IMG/VR virus record: IMGVR_UViG_3300045988_122807
DNA from: a virus
Length of the DNA stretch: 51,093 nucleotides
Direction: 5' to 3' (one strand)
Of this stretch, positions 4,548-51,093 are shown one piece after another (position 1 is the stretch's first letter; the number at the start of each line of letters is the position of its first letter). The translations under genes were made by a program, and so were the position numbers. The notes below the pieces were generated by a model, which was given only the letters and a program-made list of their open reading frames with translations, was not told the origin of the DNA and did not search any database.

Positions 4548-5986
4548 TAGACCCGGAGGCAATCCTGTACTATGCGGACAACCCTGTGGACTTTGTGGAG
4601 GACATCATCCGGGCAAAGCCTGACCCCAACCAGCGGGACATACTCAACTCCATTGCCAAGTATCCTATGACCTCTGTTCGGTCCGGCCACGGCATCGGCA
4701 AGTCTGCTGTGGAGAGCTGGGCCGTTATCTGGTTTCTGGCAACCAGGCCCTTCCCCAAGATACCATGCACAGCCCCCACTCAGCACCAGCTCTGGGACAT
4801 TCTGTGGGCTGAAATCGCCAAATGGTTGAGGTCCAACCCCGTACTGAGCAACGACCTTATCTGGACCCGCGAAAAGGTCTATATGAGGGGCTACCCGGAA
4901 GAATGGTTTGCGGTAGCCCGGACCGCCAGCAAGCCCGACGCCCTCCAGGGCTTCCATGCTGACCATGTGCTCTATATCATCGACGAGGCCTCCGGCGTCC
5001 GGGATGATATTTTCGAGCCTGTCCTGGGCGCCCTCTCCACCGAGGGGGCCCGCCTGGTTATGTGCGGGAACCCTACTAAAATCACCGGCTTTTTCTATGA
5101 TAGCCACCACAAGAACCGGGCGCAGTACAGCACCCTCCACATTGATGGCCGGAACAGCAGCCGGGTAGATGAGGAGTTCATCCGAACCATCATTGAGATG
5201 TTCGGGGAGGACAGCGACGTTTTTAGGGTCCGCGTGGCCGGGGACTTCCCCAAGGCCCTGCCCGATAGCTTCATAGCTATGGAGTGGGCGGAGAGGGCCA
5301 GCGAGGGTGAACCCCCCGCCATTGAGCGTGTCCTGAGAGTGGACATCGGCATTGACGTGGCCCGGTATGGAGATGACAGCAGCGTACTTTCCCCCGTGCT
5401 GGATAAAGCCGTTCAGGGTGAGCCTCTGGTTTACCACCACAACGACACCATGGAGCTGGCCGGGAGAGCTGTTCAGGCCATCAAGACCTATGCCAGGGCC
5501 CACGAATGGGCCTCTATTTTCGTCAAGGTGGACTGTGACGGCCTGGGTGTGGGGGTATATGACCGCCTGGCAGAGCAGAGGGCTGAAATCGTGGGGGCTG
5601 TCGAGGCTGACCGGGCCGCTCGGTATGAGGGCGAGGACCCGGACAAAATCCCCCCTCCGTTTCATCTGGAGGTCCTGGAGTGCCACTTCGGGGGCGAAGG
5701 TGGGCGGATTACGGATGATGACCCTATCGAATACCAGAACAGCACCGGGCTCATGTGGGGCGCCGTGCGGGAGGCCCTGAGAACCGGCAGCCTTCACCTC
5801 TGGTATAACGACCAGCAGATCAGTCAGCTATCCAACAGGAAGTATTCCGTCAATAGCTCTGGCCGGATTGAGCTGGAGCGCAAGGAGGCCATGAAAAAGC
5901 GGGGGCTTTCCTCCCCCGATATGGCCGACGCCCTGGCCCTGGCCCTCCACGACCCCGTCGTGAGCGACTGGAGCCTTGAATTTTGA
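4544..5986 (+). CDS. terL: Terminase large subunit
   Basis: Walker A-like SGHGIGKS and Walker B LYIIDEASG, with a C-terminal nuclease-like region (DIGIDVARYGDDSSV). Sits upstream of the portal. Confidence 0.9.
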   Translation: MIDPEAILYYADNPVDFVEDIIRAKPDPNQRDILNSIAKYPMTSVRSGHGIGKSAVESWAVIWFLATRPFPKIPCTAPTQHQLWDILWAEIAKWLRSNPVLSNDLIWTREKVYMRGYPEEWFAVARTASKPDALQGFHADHVLYIIDEASGVRDDIFEPVLGALSTEGARLVMCGNPTKITGFFYDSHHKNRAQYSTLHIDGRNSSRVDEEFIRTIIEMFGEDSDVFRVRVAGDFPKALPDSFIAMEWAERASEGEPPAIERVLRVDIGIDVARYGDDSSVLSPVLDKAVQGEPLVYHHNDTMELAGRAVQAIKTYARAHEWASIFVKVDCDGLGVGVYDRLAEQRAEIVGAVEADRAARYEGEDPDKIPPPFHLEVLECHFGGEGGRITDDDPIEYQNSTGLMWGAVREALRTGSLHLWYNDQQISQLSNRKYSVNSSGRIELERKEAMKKRGLSSPDMADALALALHDPVVSDWSLEF

Positions 5987-23419: not shown

Positions 23420-25705
23420 ATGTCCCTATTCACCGATGGCTGCTACCAGTGCGCGCCTGCTGAGGCTCTTATTGCCAAGGTGCTTGCTGGTCGCTGTACC
23501 ATGCACTATACGAGGGTCGCCGTGGGAAATGGGAGTATCCCAGAAGGGAGCACCCCGGCCACGATGACTGAGCCCGCCGGATATGTGATGGACGCCAAAC
23601 TCAGTGGGGTAACGAACCCGGTCGATGGAGAGTGTCAGGTCACCGCGCAGATCACCAGCGACGATGTGACGGCTGACTTCTCCGCGACCGGCGTTCTTTT
23701 GTATGCTGAGGACCCGGACCTGGGAGAGGTGCCCTATACATATCTCGTTTTGGAGGCCGCCCCTGAGCCTATCAAGGGCAAGACCTCTACCGTCGGTAAG
23801 ATTGCCATTTTCGAGCTTGTGGCCGCTGTGGGAGCTGTGGACAATGTGACCGCAGATATTGACCTCGAAACTTTGGTGACCGTCGAGAAGGTGGCCGAGA
23901 TGATTGCCGCCCATAACGTGGACGAGGAGGCCCACCCGGACATCAGGCAGATTGCCCAGGACGCCCTTGACCAGGTGGAGGCCCTGACCCATACCATCAG
24001 CACTATCCCCACCCAGAACGGCAGCCTGACCTACACCGGGTCCCCGCAGTCTCCGAGCTGGAACGGCTACGACCCGGCCACCTTGACCCTGGGCGGAACC
24101 ACGGAGGCCACCGACGCAGGGACCTACACGGCCACGTTTACGCCGAAGGACGATTACCAGTGGGCTGATGGCACGAAAGACCCGAAGTCGGTCCAGTGGA
24201 GCATCGGCAGGGCGAACATTGCCAGTGTGCCTACCCAGACGGGCAGCCTGACCTATAACGGGAGCACCCAAAGCCCTACCTGGTCCGGCTATGATACCTC
24301 CAAGATGACCCTGGGGGGAACCACCAGCGGCACCAATGCTGGAAGCTATGCCGCCACCTTTACCCCGAAGGCAAATTATCAGTGGACTGATGGGACCACG
24401 GCGGCCAAGGAAGCGACCTGGACCATTGGAAGGGCTACCGTCTCCACTCTCCCAAGCCAGTCTGGGTCCCTGACCTATACCGGCTCGGCGCAGTCTCCCA
24501 CCTGGGCCAATTATGATACCACGAAGCTGACTATCGGCGGGGCTACCAGCGGTACCAATGCCGGGACCTATACCGCAACATTCACCCCCACCTCCAACTA
24601 TCAGTGGGATGGTGGCGGCATCGGTCCTCAGAGCGTTAACTGGAGTATTGGGAAAGCCGCCGGCAGTTTGACCCTGAACAGGTCCAGTCTGACCCTGAAT
24701 AATGCCACCAGGACCGGGACAATCACTGTTACCCGCCCCGGGAATGGTGTTGTTACTGCATCCTCCAATAAGACCAGTATCGCCACCGTGAGCGTGAGCG
24801 GCACCACCATCACTGTGACTGCCGTTGCCTATGGCTCCGCCACGATCACCGTCAACGTGGCTGAGGGGACGAACCACACAGCCCCCTCCAGTAAGACGTG
24901 CAGCGTCACTGTGAACCTTTTCAACGATACCCTGAACTCCAACACCTGGGCCGCGATTAAGGCCGCCAGCGACGCCGGAGACGCCGCCAACGTGTGGAGC
25001 GTGGGAGATACTAAGAGTATCCGCCTTAATGGTAGGGTGGGCAACTTTACCTTCTCCAACCAGTCTATTGATGCCTTTATCGTGGGCTTTAACCACAACA
25101 GCAGTAAAGAGGGCGGAAAGAGGACCCACTTCGCTATCGGGAAAATCAGCGGGAAACTGGTGGCCCTGTGCGATAACCAGTACAACAACGAGCAGACCTC
25201 CAGCGGCTATTTCAACATGAATACCAGCCGGACCAATTCTGGAGGGTGGAACAACAGCAACATGAGGCGGAATATCCTGGGCAATACCGGGACCCCCTCC
25301 AGCCCCCCGGCCAACACTCTGCTGGCGGCCCTGCCCTCTGACCTCCGCGCCGTGATGAAGTCTGTGACCAAGTACACGGATAACACCGGCAATGCCAGCA
25401 ATGTGGCCGGGAATGTCACAGCGACCACCGATTATCTCTGGCTCTTTGCTGAGTTCGAGGTCTTTGGTACACGATATATTGCCAATGAGTATGAGAAGAA
25501 CAGCCAGGCCCAGTATGCCTACTTCTCCGCTGGCAACTCTCGTGTAGCGTACAGACATTCGTCTACCGGCACGGCCGTCTGGTGGTGGCTTCGGTCCGCC
25601 TATTACAACGGCAACAATCACTTCTGCTATGTGTACACCGACGGCAGCTGCAGCGTCACCAATGCTTCCTGGTCTGCCGGCGTCGTGGCCGGCTTTGCTG
25701 CCTAA
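23420..25705 (+). CDS. Tail fibre: collar-type N-terminus, three 74-aa tandem repeats, Big_2-like Ig domain, C-type-lectin-like tip carrying the DGR variable repeat
   Basis: The N-terminus is like tail-collar fibre proteins. The C-terminus ...TAVWWWLRSAYYNGNNHFCYVYTDGSCSVTNASWSAGVVAGFAA is the classic DGR-target ending (WWLRS...GFR/A). Confidence 0.85.
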   Translation: MSLFTDGCYQCAPAEALIAKVLAGRCTMHYTRVAVGNGSIPEGSTPATMTEPAGYVMDAKLSGVTNPVDGECQVTAQITSDDVTADFSATGVLLYAEDPDLGEVPYTYLVLEAAPEPIKGKTSTVGKIAIFELVAAVGAVDNVTADIDLETLVTVEKVAEMIAAHNVDEEAHPDIRQIAQDALDQVEALTHTISTIPTQNGSLTYTGSPQSPSWNGYDPATLTLGGTTEATDAGTYTATFTPKDDYQWADGTKDPKSVQWSIGRANIASVPTQTGSLTYNGSTQSPTWSGYDTSKMTLGGTTSGTNAGSYAATFTPKANYQWTDGTTAAKEATWTIGRATVSTLPSQSGSLTYTGSAQSPTWANYDTTKLTIGGATSGTNAGTYTATFTPTSNYQWDGGGIGPQSVNWSIGKAAGSLTLNRSSLTLNNATRTGTITVTRPGNGVVTASSNKTSIATVSVSGTTITVTAVAYGSATITVNVAEGTNHTAPSSKTCSVTVNLFNDTLNSNTWAAIKAASDAGDAANVWSVGDTKSIRLNGRVGNFTFSNQSIDAFIVGFNHNSSKEGGKRTHFAIGKISGKLVALCDNQYNNEQTSSGYFNMNTSRTNSGGWNNSNMRRNILGNTGTPSSPPANTLLAALPSDLRAVMKSVTKYTDNTGNASNVAGNVTATTDYLWLFAEFEVFGTRYIANEYEKNSQAQYAYFSAGNSRVAYRHSSTGTAVWWWLRSAYYNGNNHFCYVYTDGSCSVTNASWSAGVVAGFAA
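24011..24676 (+). repeat. Three tandem 222-bp (74-aa) repeats inside the tail-fibre gene
   Basis: Units start at 24011, 24233 and 24455. Example unit: TQ.GSLTY.GS.QSP.W.GYD...(L/M)TLGGTT...AG.Y.ATFTPK..YQW.DGT. Confidence 0.85.
25573..25696 (+). repeat. DGR variable repeat (VR)
   Basis: 124 nt aligned to 26638-26761. There are 13 mismatches, all at positions where the TR has A. Confidence 0.9.
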
Positions 25706-25733
25706 TCCTCCGCAGAGCTATCCAGGCCCCATC

Positions 25734-25753
25734 CCGCCCCCGCAAGGGGGCGG
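25734..25753 (+). promoter_or_regulatory. GC-rich hairpin (8-bp stem, GCAA tetraloop) 37 nt downstream of VR; candidate DGR target-recognition stem-loop
   Basis: CCGCCCCC-GCAA-GGGGGCGG. A comparable element is known downstream of the VR in the Bordetella phage BPP-1 DGR. Confidence 0.55.
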
Positions 25754-25799
25754 TCCCCCGGTAGAAGAAGGCGGCTCCAGGGAGCGCCGAAAAAATAAT

Positions 25800-25828
25800 G
25801 TCGGCGCGAAGCGCCGACGCGATTTTTT
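25800..25828 (+). terminator. Rho-independent terminator after the tail-fibre gene
   Basis: GTCGGCGC-GAA-GCGCCGAC, then GCGA and TTTTTT. An upstream GCGCCGA (25784-25790) could pair with the left arm instead. Confidence 0.65.
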
Positions 25829-25936
25829 GAAAATGCCTCCCTTGAAAAGTGCTATCACTTGCCTGTCTTTAGACTGCATACATGGAGAAAAAATAGCCAT
25901 AAAATAGCTCTATGCCAATCAGTCTGGGGGTATTCT

Positions 25937-26119
25937 ATGGCAACCAACAAAAGAGTGTTCACCCTCCGCCTCTCCGATGAAGTGTTTGAGAAAATCGGAA
26001 TACTGGCTACCAATGAGCACCGTTCCGTGACGAACTATATCGAGTTCGTGCTACTGAAGCACCTGGAGGACGTGGAGAGGGAACACGGAGAAATTAAGAC
26101 CGGCGGAACTGAGGTGTAG
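25937..26119 (+). CDS. Ribbon-helix-helix (Arc/CopG-like) DNA-binding protein inside the DGR cassette
   Basis: MATNKRVFTLRLSDEVFEKIGILATNEHRSVTNYIEFVLLKHLE shows the beta-strand-helix-helix pattern of RHH proteins. The ATG follows a GGGGG RBS. Confidence 0.6.
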   Translation: MATNKRVFTLRLSDEVFEKIGILATNEHRSVTNYIEFVLLKHLEDVEREHGEIKTGGTEV

Positions 26120-26121
26120 CT

Positions 26122-26583
26122 ATGTCGGTTCTAAAATCCAAAAGAACTACCAGCAAGGCCGAGTTCGTGAACACGGCCCATCAGATTTTTGTCGAGACCC
26201 TGGGCTTTCTCACCCGGCTGTCTGCCCGGTACTCCCGGCTCCTGGCCGAACCTACCGCAAAGCTGGCCGGAGAGGTCATCGACCATGCGGAGAAGGCCAA
26301 CAGCATCTTCCCGTCTGACCTTCAGCGGGTGGAGCTGAGAAAAGCCCATCTCCTGGAGGCCAGGGCCTCCCTCATGGCCCTGGACGTGAGGCTCACCCAT
26401 TGCTATACGCTGATGAGCCAGAACCCCCAGGGCTGTTTCACGGATGGAAAAGGGAAAAGCCTTCCTCCGTCTGAAGCGATGGAGAAGCTGGACCGCATGG
26501 CCCAAAGCCTTGGAGAGAAGATAGACCAGGAGAACGAGCTTCTGAAGGGGCAAATCAAGGGCTTGGCGAAGAAGAAAGAATAG
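26122..26583 (+). CDS. avd: Accessory variability determinant (Avd-like four-helix-bundle protein)
   Basis: 153 aa, helical and basic, placed immediately 5' of the TR as in canonical DGRs. Confidence 0.6.
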   Translation: MSVLKSKRTTSKAEFVNTAHQIFVETLGFLTRLSARYSRLLAEPTAKLAGEVIDHAEKANSIFPSDLQRVELRKAHLLEARASLMALDVRLTHCYTLMSQNPQGCFTDGKGKSLPPSEAMEKLDRMAQSLGEKIDQENELLKGQIKGLAKKKE

Positions 26584-26637
26584 CTCAATATTGGGTGTAT
26601 GTCTGATTATTCCAGGCGCGGTGTTTTCGGCCCTTCG

Positions 26638-26761
26638 GGCCGTCTGGTGGTGGCTTCGGTCCGCCAATTACAACAACAACAATAACTTCTGCAATGTGAA
26701 CACCGACGGCAACTACAACAACAACAATGCTTCCTGGTCTGCCGGCGTCGTGGCCGGATTT
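26638..26761 (+). repeat. DGR template repeat (TR)
   Basis: A non-coding copy of the VR, rich in AAC/AAT codons (AATTACAACAACAACAATAAC...AACTACAACAACAACAAT). The track ORF 26591-26788 is an artefact of this repeat. Confidence 0.9.
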
Positions 26762-26983
26762 TGCGATATGCGGGGTCAAATGGAGTAGCAAGAGAGCGAA
26801 AGACGACCCACGCAAAAGGAGACATACTTCCCTGGGTGAAAATCCCTAAAACTGCCCTCTGACGGCTCCGCACGGACGCTTCTTGCATGGCAGGGGATTG
26901 CGCTGAACCTGTTTCATGTGCTGGGCCAAAGTAGTTTAGAGGCGCACCTACAACTTAACTATGCGGAGGCGCGAATACTTATT
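26638..26983 (+). ncRNA. DGR RNA (TR plus structured spacer up to the RT start)
   Basis: 220-nt non-coding spacer with a long-range helix: AATCCC/CTGCC at 26841-26856 pairs with GGCAG/GGGATT at 26889-26899. The true ends are unknown. Confidence 0.5.
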
Positions 26984-28153
26984 ATGACGAGCCAAGAGCG
27001 CCGCGAGGCGCGATACCAACGCCGCTGGGCCCGGCGGCTGGAAAAGAAGCGGGCCCGCTGTGATCACCTTGGAGGCCTGGAGAAATCTTTCGGCTATCGG
27101 AAAATGTTCTTCTGGGGAAAGAAGTGCTGCAACGGGGTGCGCTGGAAGCAGAGCACTCAAAATTTTGAGCTTCATCTGTTCTCTGGCACCGCCCGGAGAC
27201 GGCGGGACATACTGCTGGGGCGGCATAAGTTCAAGAAATGCTCACACTTTACCCTCCGGGAGAGGGGAAAAGTGCGCCCGATTGACGCTCCCCACGTGAC
27301 AGACCGGCAAATCCATAAGACCTTGTGCAACGAGGTCCTGATACCCCTTTATAGCCCGTGCATGATATATGACAACGGAGCCAGCCAGAAGAAGAAAGGC
27401 CTTCACTGGGCCTATGGCCGTTTGGAGGAACAGCTTCACTGGCATTTCCGCCGGTATGGGCGCCAAGGGGGTGTGTTCCTGCTGGACCTGAAGGGCTTTT
27501 TTCCGAATGCCCCTCACGCTTCCCTGTACCAGAGGCACCAGCAACTCATTTTTGACCCTGGCCTCCGGGCCCTGGCCGATTCCGTCATTGCCAGCTCTCC
27601 TTGCCCTACCCCTGGGCGTGGGATGCCGCTGGGGGTGGAGCCGTCACAACAGGAGATGGTGGCCCTGCCCAGCAGCGTGGACAACTGGATAAAGTGCCAG
27701 GCCGGGGTCCATGTGGCTGGTCACTACATGGACGATTATTATATCGCCCTCCCGGACATCGAGGAGCTGAAGAAGCTGGCCCGCGAGATAGTGCGCCGCT
27801 TCGAGGCCTTGGGTATCCGGGTAAACAAGCGCAAGTGCAAAATTGTCCCCCTTACGAAGCCCTTCCGCTTCTGTAAGGTCCGCTTCACCTTGACTGAGAG
27901 CGGAGCCGTCAAAAGGAATGGCTGCCGTGATGGGATGAAGCGGAGCCGCCGGAAGCTGAAATTTTTCCAGCGGGAGGTCGCCGCAGGGCGGCGCACCCTT
28001 GCTGAGGCCGCCGAATATATGCAGTCTCAGCGGGCCTACTACCGCAGTTTCGATGACCACGGACGGCTTCTCCGCCTGGAGAGGCTGGCATACGCTATTT
28101 TCGGAGGTGCTTTATGTTCAAAATCATCAAAGACGGAGCCCTTATCGGCATGA
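26984..28153 (+). CDS. DGR-type reverse transcriptase
   Basis: FTLRERGKVRPIDAPHVTDRQIHKTLCNEVLIPL (RT motifs 1-2), GMPLGVEPSQQEMVAL (the position of the DGR IGNLTSQ motif), HYMDDYYIAL (YxDD). I prefer the ATG at 26984 over the GTG at 26918. Confidence 0.85.
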   Translation: MTSQERREARYQRRWARRLEKKRARCDHLGGLEKSFGYRKMFFWGKKCCNGVRWKQSTQNFELHLFSGTARRRRDILLGRHKFKKCSHFTLRERGKVRPIDAPHVTDRQIHKTLCNEVLIPLYSPCMIYDNGASQKKKGLHWAYGRLEEQLHWHFRRYGRQGGVFLLDLKGFFPNAPHASLYQRHQQLIFDPGLRALADSVIASSPCPTPGRGMPLGVEPSQQEMVALPSSVDNWIKCQAGVHVAGHYMDDYYIALPDIEELKKLAREIVRRFEALGIRVNKRKCKIVPLTKPFRFCKVRFTLTESGAVKRNGCRDGMKRSRRKLKFFQREVAAGRRTLAEAAEYMQSQRAYYRSFDDHGRLLRLERLAYAIFGGALCSKSSKTEPLSA

Positions 28154-28800
28154 CCGAGGCCCCAAAGTACATCAAAAAGGCCGCGAATGGCTGCTTCAAC
28201 CTTTGCCCTGAGCTGGAGGCTCAGGGCATTTCTTTTGCCGGAAATCCATATCACCTGCTGGGGCGGGATGAGCTGGACGGCCTGGAGACGGTAAGCCTGG
28301 AGGAGGCGGACGCCGGCGTGGAGCTGCAGGCTATGTCTGAGACTGTGACCTCCTCCGCGAAGCTGTCTGGGCAGATGCAGACCGCCGCCCGGCTCTATGT
28401 TCGGAAGGCTACCGACATCTCCGATGACAACGCCCTCCAGATGCCTGACCTGTTCACTACCTGGAAGGAGGCCCTGGCCGCCGGGGAACAGCTAGAGGCA
28501 AACACCGTGCTGAACCTGGACGGGAAACTCTATCGGGTGGTCCAGCCCGTTACCCCCCAGGAGCACCAGCCCCCCAACGGAGAGGGGATGACGGCCATTT
28601 ACCGCCCCATCGACCAGACCCACGCCGGGACCCTGGAGGACCCTATCCCCTGGGCCTATGGCATGGACAGTGAGCAGGGGAAGTATTACAGCTACAATGG
28701 CAAGGTGTACCTCTGCAACCTGACCATGCCGGGGTGTGTGTATGCCCCCGACACTCCTGGGCTGTGGCAGTGGTCCGAGGCTGAGGAGGTGTCCGAATAA
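28114..28800 (+). CDS. Hypothetical tail-associated protein with a CBM5/12-like C-terminal motif
   Basis: RBS GGAGGTG. The C-terminus YYSYNGKVYLCNLTMPGCVYAPDTPGLWQWSE resembles small carbohydrate-binding modules. Overlaps the RT 3' end by 40 nt. Confidence 0.5.
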   Translation: MFKIIKDGALIGMTEAPKYIKKAANGCFNLCPELEAQGISFAGNPYHLLGRDELDGLETVSLEEADAGVELQAMSETVTSSAKLSGQMQTAARLYVRKATDISDDNALQMPDLFTTWKEALAAGEQLEANTVLNLDGKLYRVVQPVTPQEHQPPNGEGMTAIYRPIDQTHAGTLEDPIPWAYGMDSEQGKYYSYNGKVYLCNLTMPGCVYAPDTPGLWQWSEAEEVSE

Positions 28801-50956: not shown

Positions 50957-51093
50957 ATGAAACAGTACATCGGAACCAAGCTCATTGAGGCTGAGCCCGC
51001 ATACCGTGTGCGGAACCCTGGGGGCGACTACCAAATCACCACTGATGCGCGGGAGGCCTTCACCAATTTTGCTGAGGTGGAGGACGGGTACAG
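50957..51093 (+). CDS. 5' part of the junction-spanning DUF2829/Tad2-like gene (continues at base 78 after removing the overlap; same gene as 1-408)
   Basis: ATG at 50957. MKQYIGTKLIEAEPAYRVRNPGGDYQITTDAREAFTNFAEVEDGY..., in frame with 1-408 through the 77-bp overlap. Full product about 155 aa. Confidence 0.75.
   Translation, partial: MKQYIGTKLIEAEPAYRVRNPGGDYQITTDAREAFTNFAEVEDGY
51017..51093 (+). repeat. Terminal overlap copy 2 (identical to 1-77)
   Basis: Identical bases to 1-77. Confidence 0.9.

Follow-up and report, generated by a model that had tools for sequence, protein, structure and literature searches.

A probably functional BPP-1-type diversity-generating retroelement with an RT-2 spacer RNA on the tail fibre of a temperate, contractile-tailed gut phage

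The window treated here is the whole of IMG/VR virus record IMGVR_UViG_3300045988_122807, a stretch of 51,093 nucleotides (nt), and its subject is the diversity-generating retroelement (DGR) found between positions 23,420 and 28,153. The locus opens with a tail-fibre gene whose 3' end holds the variable repeat (VR), followed by a DNA hairpin and an intrinsic terminator; behind the terminator lies an operon made up of a small ribbon-helix-helix (RHH) gene, an accessory gene, the non-coding template repeat (TR), a structured spacer RNA and the gene for a reverse transcriptase (RT) (Table 1). The element is very probably a functional DGR of the BPP-1 type, carried by a contractile-tailed temperate phage of about 51 kb with gut hosts of the Oscillospiraceae/Faecalibacterium type. 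An earlier account of this DNA, made without database searches (the sequence-only reading), had proposed a complete BPP-1-type DGR on the C-terminus of a tail fibre; adenine-specific hypervariability, the DGR signature of the RT and a conserved hairpin now bear this out. The RHH gene between the target gene and the accessory gene had been missed in that account, so its list of genes is extended here by one.

Two sets of relatives are used throughout. The near-identical set contains 11 genomes, namely the window and ten fetched loci encoding an identical accessory protein of 153 amino acids (aa); the diverged set contains 16 loci, each with its own VR/TR pair. The hairpin was counted in 17 loci and the RNA pairings in 18.

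VR and TR form a direct repeat of 124 nt with 90% identity and a spacing of 1065 nt; the repeat finder returned the same coordinates that had been proposed from a manual alignment, with the TR outside any gene. Aligned without gaps, the two copies differ at 13 positions, and 13 of 13 are adenines in the TR, which leaves no mismatch at a non-adenine position of the template, as had been claimed; given 31 adenines in 124 nt, the hypergeometric probability of this distribution is 1.5e-9. In the frame of the 761-aa target open reading frame (ORF), 12 of the 13 mismatches fall on the first or second position of AAY or TAC codons. There are 17 codons open to recoding, 13 of which are the in-frame AAY codons from which the TR had rightly been said to be built; the 30 mutable adenines give access to 1.15e18 DNA variants and about 5e17 protein variants, and a stop codon is impossible. 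A scan of both strands of the window with the TR adenines as wildcards found no further VR-like copy.

The GC-rich end that the repeats had been said to share is also present, and at the VR it resembles the initiation of mutagenic homing (IMH) element of known DGRs. Beyond it the VR ends in GGCTTT and the TR in GGATTT, a difference that is constant in 11 of 11 near-identical genomes and 16 of 16 diverged loci. Since A26758 of the TR and C25693 of the VR are fixed in all 27 loci, this position is taken to be the IMH/IMH* discriminator and not a trace of mutagenesis; the window therefore holds 12 mutagenic changes, and the earlier count of 13 stands for adenine differences but not for mutations. 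Directly after the VR and across the stop codon (25700-25718), the sequence CTAATCC[T/C]CCGCAG is kept in most of the diverged loci (L012-L028) though it lies outside the TR/VR homology; this stretch may be part of the target-recognition region.

Table 1. Features of the retroelement and its target gene, in positions of the window
Feature	Position	Strand	Description
DGR target gene, 761 aa	23420-25705	+	Tail-fibre N-terminus, three 74-aa repeats, Big_2-like domain below cutoff, C-terminal DUF6273 with the VR
VR	25573-25696	+	aa 718-759 of the 761-aa target; mutable tract 25601-25662
IMH-like VR 3' end	25676-25696	+	17-nt GC-rich GCCGGCGTCGTGGCCGG (25676-25692), then C25693, then TTT
Post-VR DNA hairpin/cruciform	25734-25753	.	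8-bp stem CCGCCCCC GCAA GGGGGCGG, 37 nt after the VR
Intrinsic terminator of the tail-fibre transcript	25799-25828	+	9-bp GC-rich stem, then a T-run; divides the target gene from the accessory-TR-RT operon
RHH (Arc/CopG-like) protein, 60 aa	25937-26119	+	First operon gene, 2 nt upstream of the accessory gene
Accessory protein, 153 aa	26122-26583	+	phrog_30516; isoelectric point (pI) 9.27; predicted four-helix bundle
Predicted stop duplex	26593-26604 with 26820-26832	+	GGGTGTATGTCT, 34 nt upstream of the TR, with AGACATACTTCCC; brackets the TR
TR	26638-26761	+	Intergenic, non-coding; 31 A, 30 mutable; 13 AAY codons
Predicted primer duplex	26759-26765 with 26811-26817	+	TTTTGCG (template strand) with CGCAAAA; immediately 3' of the discriminator A26758
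DGR spacer RNA, Rfam RT-2 (RF03077)	26771-26992	+	222 nt, full-length model 1-222, 170.4 bits against a gathering threshold of 40
Spacer sub-elements I	26773-26809; 26811-26817	+	5' stem-loop; primer strand, then GG
Spacer sub-elements II	26820-26832; about 26833-26846; 26847-26852	+	Stop-duplex strand; short stem-loop; UAAAAC, then a multi-helix domain
DGR RT, 389 aa	26984-28153	+	RVT_1 E 2e-14; phrog_1423 E 1e-66

The comparison between genomes shows the element at work. Ten of the 11 near-identical genomes share one TR sequence, and no two share a VR; in ten ungapped VR/TR pairs from these genomes, 148 mismatches coincide with TR adenines and 2 do not, and the substitutions at TR adenines comprise 71 A>G, 43 A>T and 24 A>C. 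Among the 11 genomes the VR has a nucleotide diversity (pi) of 0.153, about 11 times the 0.014 of the remaining target gene; the TR stands at 0.006 and the spacer at 0.003. The flanks are about 99% identical between these genomes, and VRs that differ against such a background indicate that their turnover is very recent. The 16 diverged loci repeat the pattern, with 213 mismatches at adenines and 7 elsewhere. One relative, L004, has a variant TR (TGCAAT to GTAAAC); the same non-adenine changes stand in the L004 VR, where the new adenine has itself been mutated, so the transfer runs from TR to VR. The TR is thus the master copy, and its sequence passes to the VR with randomisation only at adenines.

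Some smaller observations attach to these repeats. The TR of L004 (4500-4667, corresponding to about 26621-26788 of the window) is called by gene finders as a 55-aa protein with a weak DUF6273 match; this ORF is an artefact of annotating a template copy that does not code for protein. In L006 and L008 the VR carries one non-adenine change each (T>A and T>G), between the mutable tract and the IMH.

The RT displays the motifs LGVEPSQ (aa 216-222, 27629-27649) and YMDD (aa 248-251, 27725-27736), the latter already recognised in the sequence-only reading. Its sole sequence match in the PDB at E<=0.01 is 8ub7_A, the BPP-1 reverse transcriptase bRT (E 7e-8, 26% identity); LGVEPSQ aligns with IGSLTSQ of bRT (I181-Q187), and R98 aligns with bRT R74. 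The pattern [I/V/L]GxxxSQ is the signature of DGR RTs, in place of the QGxxxSP of intron and retroviral RTs, and R74 of bRT promotes adenine mutagenesis (PMC7826257).

The spacer between TR and RT, previously described as structured, is a full-length member of the Rfam family RT-2; in all 18 loci this RNA comes after the TR, and the 17 related loci score 137-181 bits. The family Phage_DGR (RF03022) has no match in 25500-27200 at E<=1, while the BPP-1 spacer, which served as a positive control, matches it at 104.7 bits. RNAalifold on the 16 diverged spacers gives a consensus in which 20 of 42 pairs are compensatory, with changes on both sides.

The search for long-range pairings was guided by the BPP-1 ribonucleoprotein, in which an Avd-binding stem-loop is followed by the primer strand Sp47-56 (A56), two nucleotides, the cPRT Stop duplex (avd:Sp), a short stem-loop, A-minor adenosines and a bRT-binding stem. 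Two duplexes were found, and both lie outside the Rfam RT-2 structure. The stop duplex is paired in 198 of 198 cells across the 18 loci and has double-sided changes at 7 of its 11 pairs; none of 500 shuffles reaches the observed values, and slid registers give 0-2. The primer duplex is paired in 122 of 126 cells (97%), with misses at the outermost pair only; compensatory changes occur at 5 of its 7 pairs, and its covariation score is 0.556 against 0.246 in shuffles. By analogy with BPP-1, A26817 is predicted to be the priming nucleotide and A26758 the first template base; this would explain why A26758 and the nucleotides 3' of it are never transferred to the VR.

RNAduplex run on long upstream and spacer segments returned over-extended, uninformative structures. 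An alternative primer pairing drawn by eye, between the conserved TR sequence CCGGAUUU and AAAUCC of the spacer, was rejected because AAAUCC is the 3' arm of a hairpin and shows no covariation. The spacer also contains the sole Shine-Dalgarno-like sequence ahead of the RT start, GGAGG at 26965-26969, 14 nt upstream of the ATG at 26984; in the consensus fold it is paired within the closing helix of RT-2 (CGGAGG with CCUCUG at about 26857-26862), which suggests that RNA folding is coupled to translation of the RT. The length of the RT-2 5' stem-loop varies, with about 10 to >35 nt of extra helix in L014, L015, L018, L020, L024 and L029, and large insertions occur elsewhere in the RNA of L020 (4240-4295) and L019; such expansions are tolerated and could mark protein-free surfaces.

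At the target site, the 8-bp GC stem with a GCAA loop that had been reported 37 nt after the VR was recovered at the same distance. All 17 loci have a hairpin of this kind at a distance of 34-41 nt downstream of the VR, with a GC-rich stem of 6-9 bp and a loop of GCAA, GGAA or GAAA; the stems are compensatory across loci (CCGCCCCC/GGGGGCGG, ACGCCCGC/GCGGGCGT, GGGGTGC/GCACCCC and CCGCCCAT/ATGGGCGG). It is distinct from the terminator further downstream. In BPP-1 the post-VR hairpin is required for retrohoming; the published form has a stem of 7-10 bp and a 4-nt loop with the consensus GRNA, and lies 4-34 bp after the VR (PMC3240598).

The accessory protein had been called Avd-like in the sequence-only reading, and this description holds for its fold, charge, size and position but not for its sequence. 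Searches of Pfam and NCBIfam and a phmmer search of the PDB yield no match that would link it to Avd. Its family forms 344 clusters at 50% identity; none of 41 members matches Pfam PF05635 or PF22296 at E<=1, a family profile search of the PDB finds no Avd chain, and the probability from hhalign is 0.3%, whether the comparison is made with bAvd alone or with an alignment of 38 bAvd sequences. The positive control, bAvd itself, matches PF22296 at E 7e-36. The AlphaFold2 model (pLDDT 93) has four long helices, the C-terminal one extended, and the top PDB folds are five chains of 2gsc (probability 1.00, TM 0.72 normalised by target), which is the structural representative of PF05635 and homologous to bAvd (PMC10053308). 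Among the BFVD neighbours of the model, ranks 2-5 are annotated 'Avd-like protein' and ranks 13 and 21 are likewise Avd-like or bAvd-like. In every locus examined the gene is the immediate upstream neighbour of the TR, including those that have lost the RHH gene. The protein is thus predicted to be Avd-like by fold, size, charge and position while being a sequence orphan; according to Wu et al. about a quarter of DGRs have no recognisable avd, and avd genes show very little conservation. Two other assignments were set aside: a PDB match to an Mce/MlaD protein (E 2.5e-5) was put down to coiled-coil or low-complexity similarity, given that the family profile failed to recover it, and the CH1 accessory class of Wu et al. 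was ruled out on charge, since the accessory protein is basic and CH1 proteins have an acidic pI of 4.7.

The RHH gene has weak Pfam matches to RHH_7 and Arc and a match to the Arc-like repressor phrog_582 (E 5e-6). It is present in 9 of 16 loci, where it is highly conserved, and cleanly missing from 7; it is therefore an optional member of the cassette. Its product may regulate the DGR operon.

Taken together, the parts suggest the following mechanism. The operon behind its own terminator would supply the optional RHH protein, the basic four-helix accessory protein, the TR, the RT-2 RNA and the RT. In the transcript, the duplex between 26593-26604 and 26820-26832 would bracket the TR, and CGCAAAA of the spacer would pair with TTTTGCG just 3' of the TR, such that A26817 could prime in cis and A26758 would be copied first. 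The RT would copy the TR towards its 5' end, misincorporate opposite adenines and halt at the bracketing duplex. If the genetics of BPP-1 apply here, the complementary DNA would replace the VR through the GC-rich IMH and the conserved GC stem-loop that follows 37 nt after the VR, and the C/A discriminator would keep the TR from being targeted itself. A broader proposal is possible but rather doubtful: the DGR might be self-regulated, with the RHH protein repressing the operon, the GGAGG of the RT locked in RT-2 and hypermutation gated (for example to lysogeny or induction) and not constitutive, and the orphan Avd-like protein together with RT-2 might constitute a second class of DGR ribonucleoprotein, with the RNA architecture of BPP-1 and no sequence similarity in the cofactors.

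Other accounts of the locus differ widely in how well they fit. Ordinary diversifying selection or recombination on a receptor-binding tip, with no reverse transcription, is scarcely credible as the source of the VR hypervariability; tail-fibre tips are commonly hypervariable, and the regions at about 24600-24850 and 28114-28800 also vary, but variation in the VR is limited to the adenine positions of a non-coding copy 1 kb away (148 against 2 and 213 against 7), the TR stays invariant, and the variant TR of L004 has been copied into the VR of L004. The adenine-specific transfer from TR to VR is also direct evidence of DGR function where the RT and the RT-2 RNA might otherwise be taken for a retron or a group II intron, unrelated to the repeat pair. 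Weinberg et al. speculated that most RT-associated motifs belong to retrons or group II introns, and favoured retrons (PMC5737381), and the best NCBIfam match of the RT is the group II intron RT/maturase TIGR04416; this match reaches 46 bits, far under the cutoff of 300, the RT has LGVEPSQ and not QGxxxSP, no group II intron RNA domain or retron msr family is found in the region by Rfam at E<=1, and covariation supports pairing of the RNA both to the TR 3' end and to a stretch upstream of the TR. A retron or intron therefore has next to no probability.

A less remote alternative is that the element is a DGR by descent whose copy in the window has recently been silenced, the VR recording past activity; decay in relatives speaks for it, while in the window every part is intact (a full 389-aa RT with catalytic motifs, a consensus TR, the discriminator, the hairpin and two perfect duplexes) and the differences between VRs of genomes about 99% identical imply very recent turnover, which together make a relic quite improbable. 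The alternative with the most in its favour concerns the 153-aa protein, which could be an unrelated helical phage protein kept in synteny or a convergent replacement of Avd. The failed family, profile and hhalign comparisons favour such a protein, as does the quarter of DGRs in which Wu et al. recognised no avd; against it stand the confident four-helix model of Avd-like size and charge, the neighbours in 2gsc and BFVD, the position abutting the TR in all loci whether or not the RHH gene is lost, a spacer that begins with a stem-loop where the BPP-1 RNA binds Avd, and the poor conservation of avd genes in general. A protein unrelated to Avd is accordingly considered unlikely, though distinctly less so than a silenced element.

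Several points weigh against the reading of the locus as a functional BPP-1-type DGR. Nothing at the sequence level ties the accessory protein to Avd, and the E-values of its fold matches are weak (0.003-0.05), which is common with helical bundles. The GCAA loop of the hairpin departs from the published GRNA consensus, and its distance of 37 nt falls just beyond the published 4-34 bp. Among the relatives, a 1-nt insertion in the VR of L005 (3450-3575) shifts the frame of the last 11 codons and results in a 781-aa product, and the RT of L009 has a deletion of roughly 235-265 bp (about 5535-5800). For the priming adenosine, the start site and the stop function, the assignment comes solely from analogy and covariation. 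Diversification is demonstrated at the level of comparison between genomes, from assembled sequences, so that activity of the window's own copy is inferred, and the consensus VRs of metagenomes may be mixtures. With these points taken into account, a functional DGR of the BPP-1 type is still regarded as very probable.

The target protein combines a tail-fibre N-terminus with a variable C-terminal domain. Residues 16-227 match the tail-fibre family phrog_7037 (E 3e-30), genes for baseplate J-like and gpI-like proteins directly precede the target gene, and the three tandem repeats of 74 aa (222 nt) occupy aa 194-400. The Ig-like nature proposed earlier for the repeats was not borne out: at 22.5 bits Big_2 stays just below its cutoff of 22.8, and a PDB sequence search with the 74-aa repeats gave just a non-significant match to the Ig domain of lambda gpV. 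Nor is the 'usual' C-type-lectin scaffold that had been expected supported for the C-terminal domain: this is DUF6273 (PF19789, aa 599-750, E 6e-13, 49.3 bits against a gathering threshold of 23.5), a domain carried by 120 of 120 homologues among the matches listed, the usual C-type lectins being of the Mtd or FGE type. Foldseek on the VR-bearing domain gives weak local C-type-lectin matches and none to Mtd or TvpA, and the domain is predicted to be only loosely C-type-lectin-like. For aa 501-761 (24920-25705) the PDB offers just one significant structural match, to a domain in the IgA peptidase of Thomasclavelia ramosa (9qa6, E 2.6e-8, 279 columns); the phage receptor-binding module is therefore one common to a bacterial host-interaction enzyme.

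Two further regions of elevated diversity lie near the VR. A smaller peak (pi about 0.10) at about 24600-24850, just after the three 74-aa repeats of the target gene, is probably due to recombination among repeat or Ig-like modules. At the other end, an ORF at 28114-28800 overlaps the 3' end of the RT gene and exists in two allelic forms, of 228 aa or of 205 aa, the latter with a CBM_5_12 match; a peak at 28196-28790 (pi 0.13-0.23 between otherwise near-identical genomes) falls within it. A second DGR target was ruled out for this peak, which has no TR match and corresponds to two allelic forms of a gene; the variation at 28114-28800 looks like allelic replacement and not like DGR action.

The last 77 nt of the window (51017-51093) are an exact copy of its first 77 nt (1-77), and the window is therefore a circularly closed, complete phage genome of 51,016 bp; many public contigs of the same phage measure 50.7-51.9 kb. 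Its GC content is 59%. By PHROGs, the genes upstream of the DGR include a terminase, portal, tail sheath, tape measure, baseplate hub, PAAR protein and gp25-like and J-like wedge proteins, and those downstream include a holin and an endolysin; the sheath and baseplate genes identify a contractile-tailed phage and agree with the earlier description of a GC-rich myophage of Firmicute type. One relative sits within a bacterial contig of 471 kb, from which it follows that the phage is temperate. Relatives of the genome were found in Muriventricola, other Oscillospiraceae and Faecalibacterium, and the nearest species-representative genome is that of Muriventricola aceti (93%). The closest named phages are the Faecalibacterium phages Pioen, FP_Taranis and Roos, with 65-67% aa identity in the RT and 73% in the accessory protein; a preprint on Mushuviridae was set aside, as it treats another phage family.

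DGRs are the most extreme natural diversifiers of proteins, with their richest reservoir in gut phages. On 817 public contigs the 153-aa accessory protein recurs exactly; a phage of this abundance offers a natural population series, with a fixed template and hundreds of independent VR outcomes. The RNA logic of BPP-1 (cis-priming duplex, stop duplex, short stem-loop and adenosines) is recovered here by covariation together with a spacer RNA and helper protein that lack sequence similarity to those of BPP-1, and concrete predictions follow for a second, distant DGR, namely priming at A26817 and A26758 as the first template base.

Like the mtd-avd-TR-brt element of BPP-1, the locus runs from target through accessory gene, TR and spacer RNA to RT; in both, a tail-fibre gene carries the VR at its 3' end, VR and TR differ at adenines only, and a GC-rich IMH differs from IMH*. 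A GC hairpin with a stem of 8 bp and a loop of 4 nt follows the VR here too, the RT likewise has [I/V/L]GxxxSQ and YMDD, and the spacer runs in the same order from the 5' stem-loop through the primer strand ending in A, 2 nt, the stop strand, the short stem-loop and the adenosines to the large stem domain. The differences are that the RT is only 26% identical, that the accessory protein has no sequence similarity to bAvd, that the spacer is RT-2 where BPP-1 has RF03022 Phage_DGR, and that the target is DUF6273 behind tandem repeats where BPP-1 has the Mtd fold; an RHH gene is added, and the predicted first template base is A where that of BPP-1 is G. The IMH and IMH* of BPP-1 differ at five nucleotides, whereas a single fixed nucleotide separates them here.

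With the Avd/23S rRNA-intervening-sequence family (PF05635, PF22296; 4DWL, 2GSC) the accessory protein shares a predicted small, basic four-helix bundle and a gene just upstream of the TR; it differs in its length (153 aa against about 110-130), its extended C-terminal helix and the lack of any similarity by HMM or profile. The spacer matches Rfam RT-2 over its full length and in its position upstream of an RT gene. That motif was described in 2017 with no function assigned to it, and only RT-10, the BPP-1 motif, was tied to DGRs (Weinberg et al., PMC5737381); the literature searched contains no link between RF03077 and DGRs.

Two published groups of DGRs act on DUF6273. In the tentaclins, published along with the DGR targets nd4 and nd12 (PMC10743442), DUF6273 and the VR are N-terminal, whereas here they are C-terminal on a baseplate-attached fibre; the RT of nd12 is only 28% identical to that of the window. 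The DGR of Pioen has the same arrangement as the window, from baseplate J, target, small ORF and accessory gene to TR, RT-2 RNA and RT. The DGRs of Pioen, Roos and FP_Taranis are covered by PMC11792537 and by Cornuault et al. 2018, as cited there; for Roos and Pioen PMC11792537 reports DUF6273 targets with a C-terminal VR and hypervariability in cognate genomes and reads, and it makes no mention of the accessory protein ('avd' occurs 0 times), the spacer RNA, the hairpin or the IMH. The window is a phage separate from these three, with one short match only in a megablast search of INPHARED. Since DUF6273-target DGRs had been published for Roos and Pioen, the kind of element is known, and the novelty claimed in the sequence-only reading was overrated; for the specialist the result is confirmatory rather than surprising, and the concept of a DGR is unchanged. 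What the present locus adds is a DGR role assigned to Rfam RT-2 and phrog_30516, a fixed discriminator of a single nucleotide, and primer and stop duplexes, supported by covariation, which extend the RNA model of BPP-1 to a lineage with unrelated cofactor sequences.

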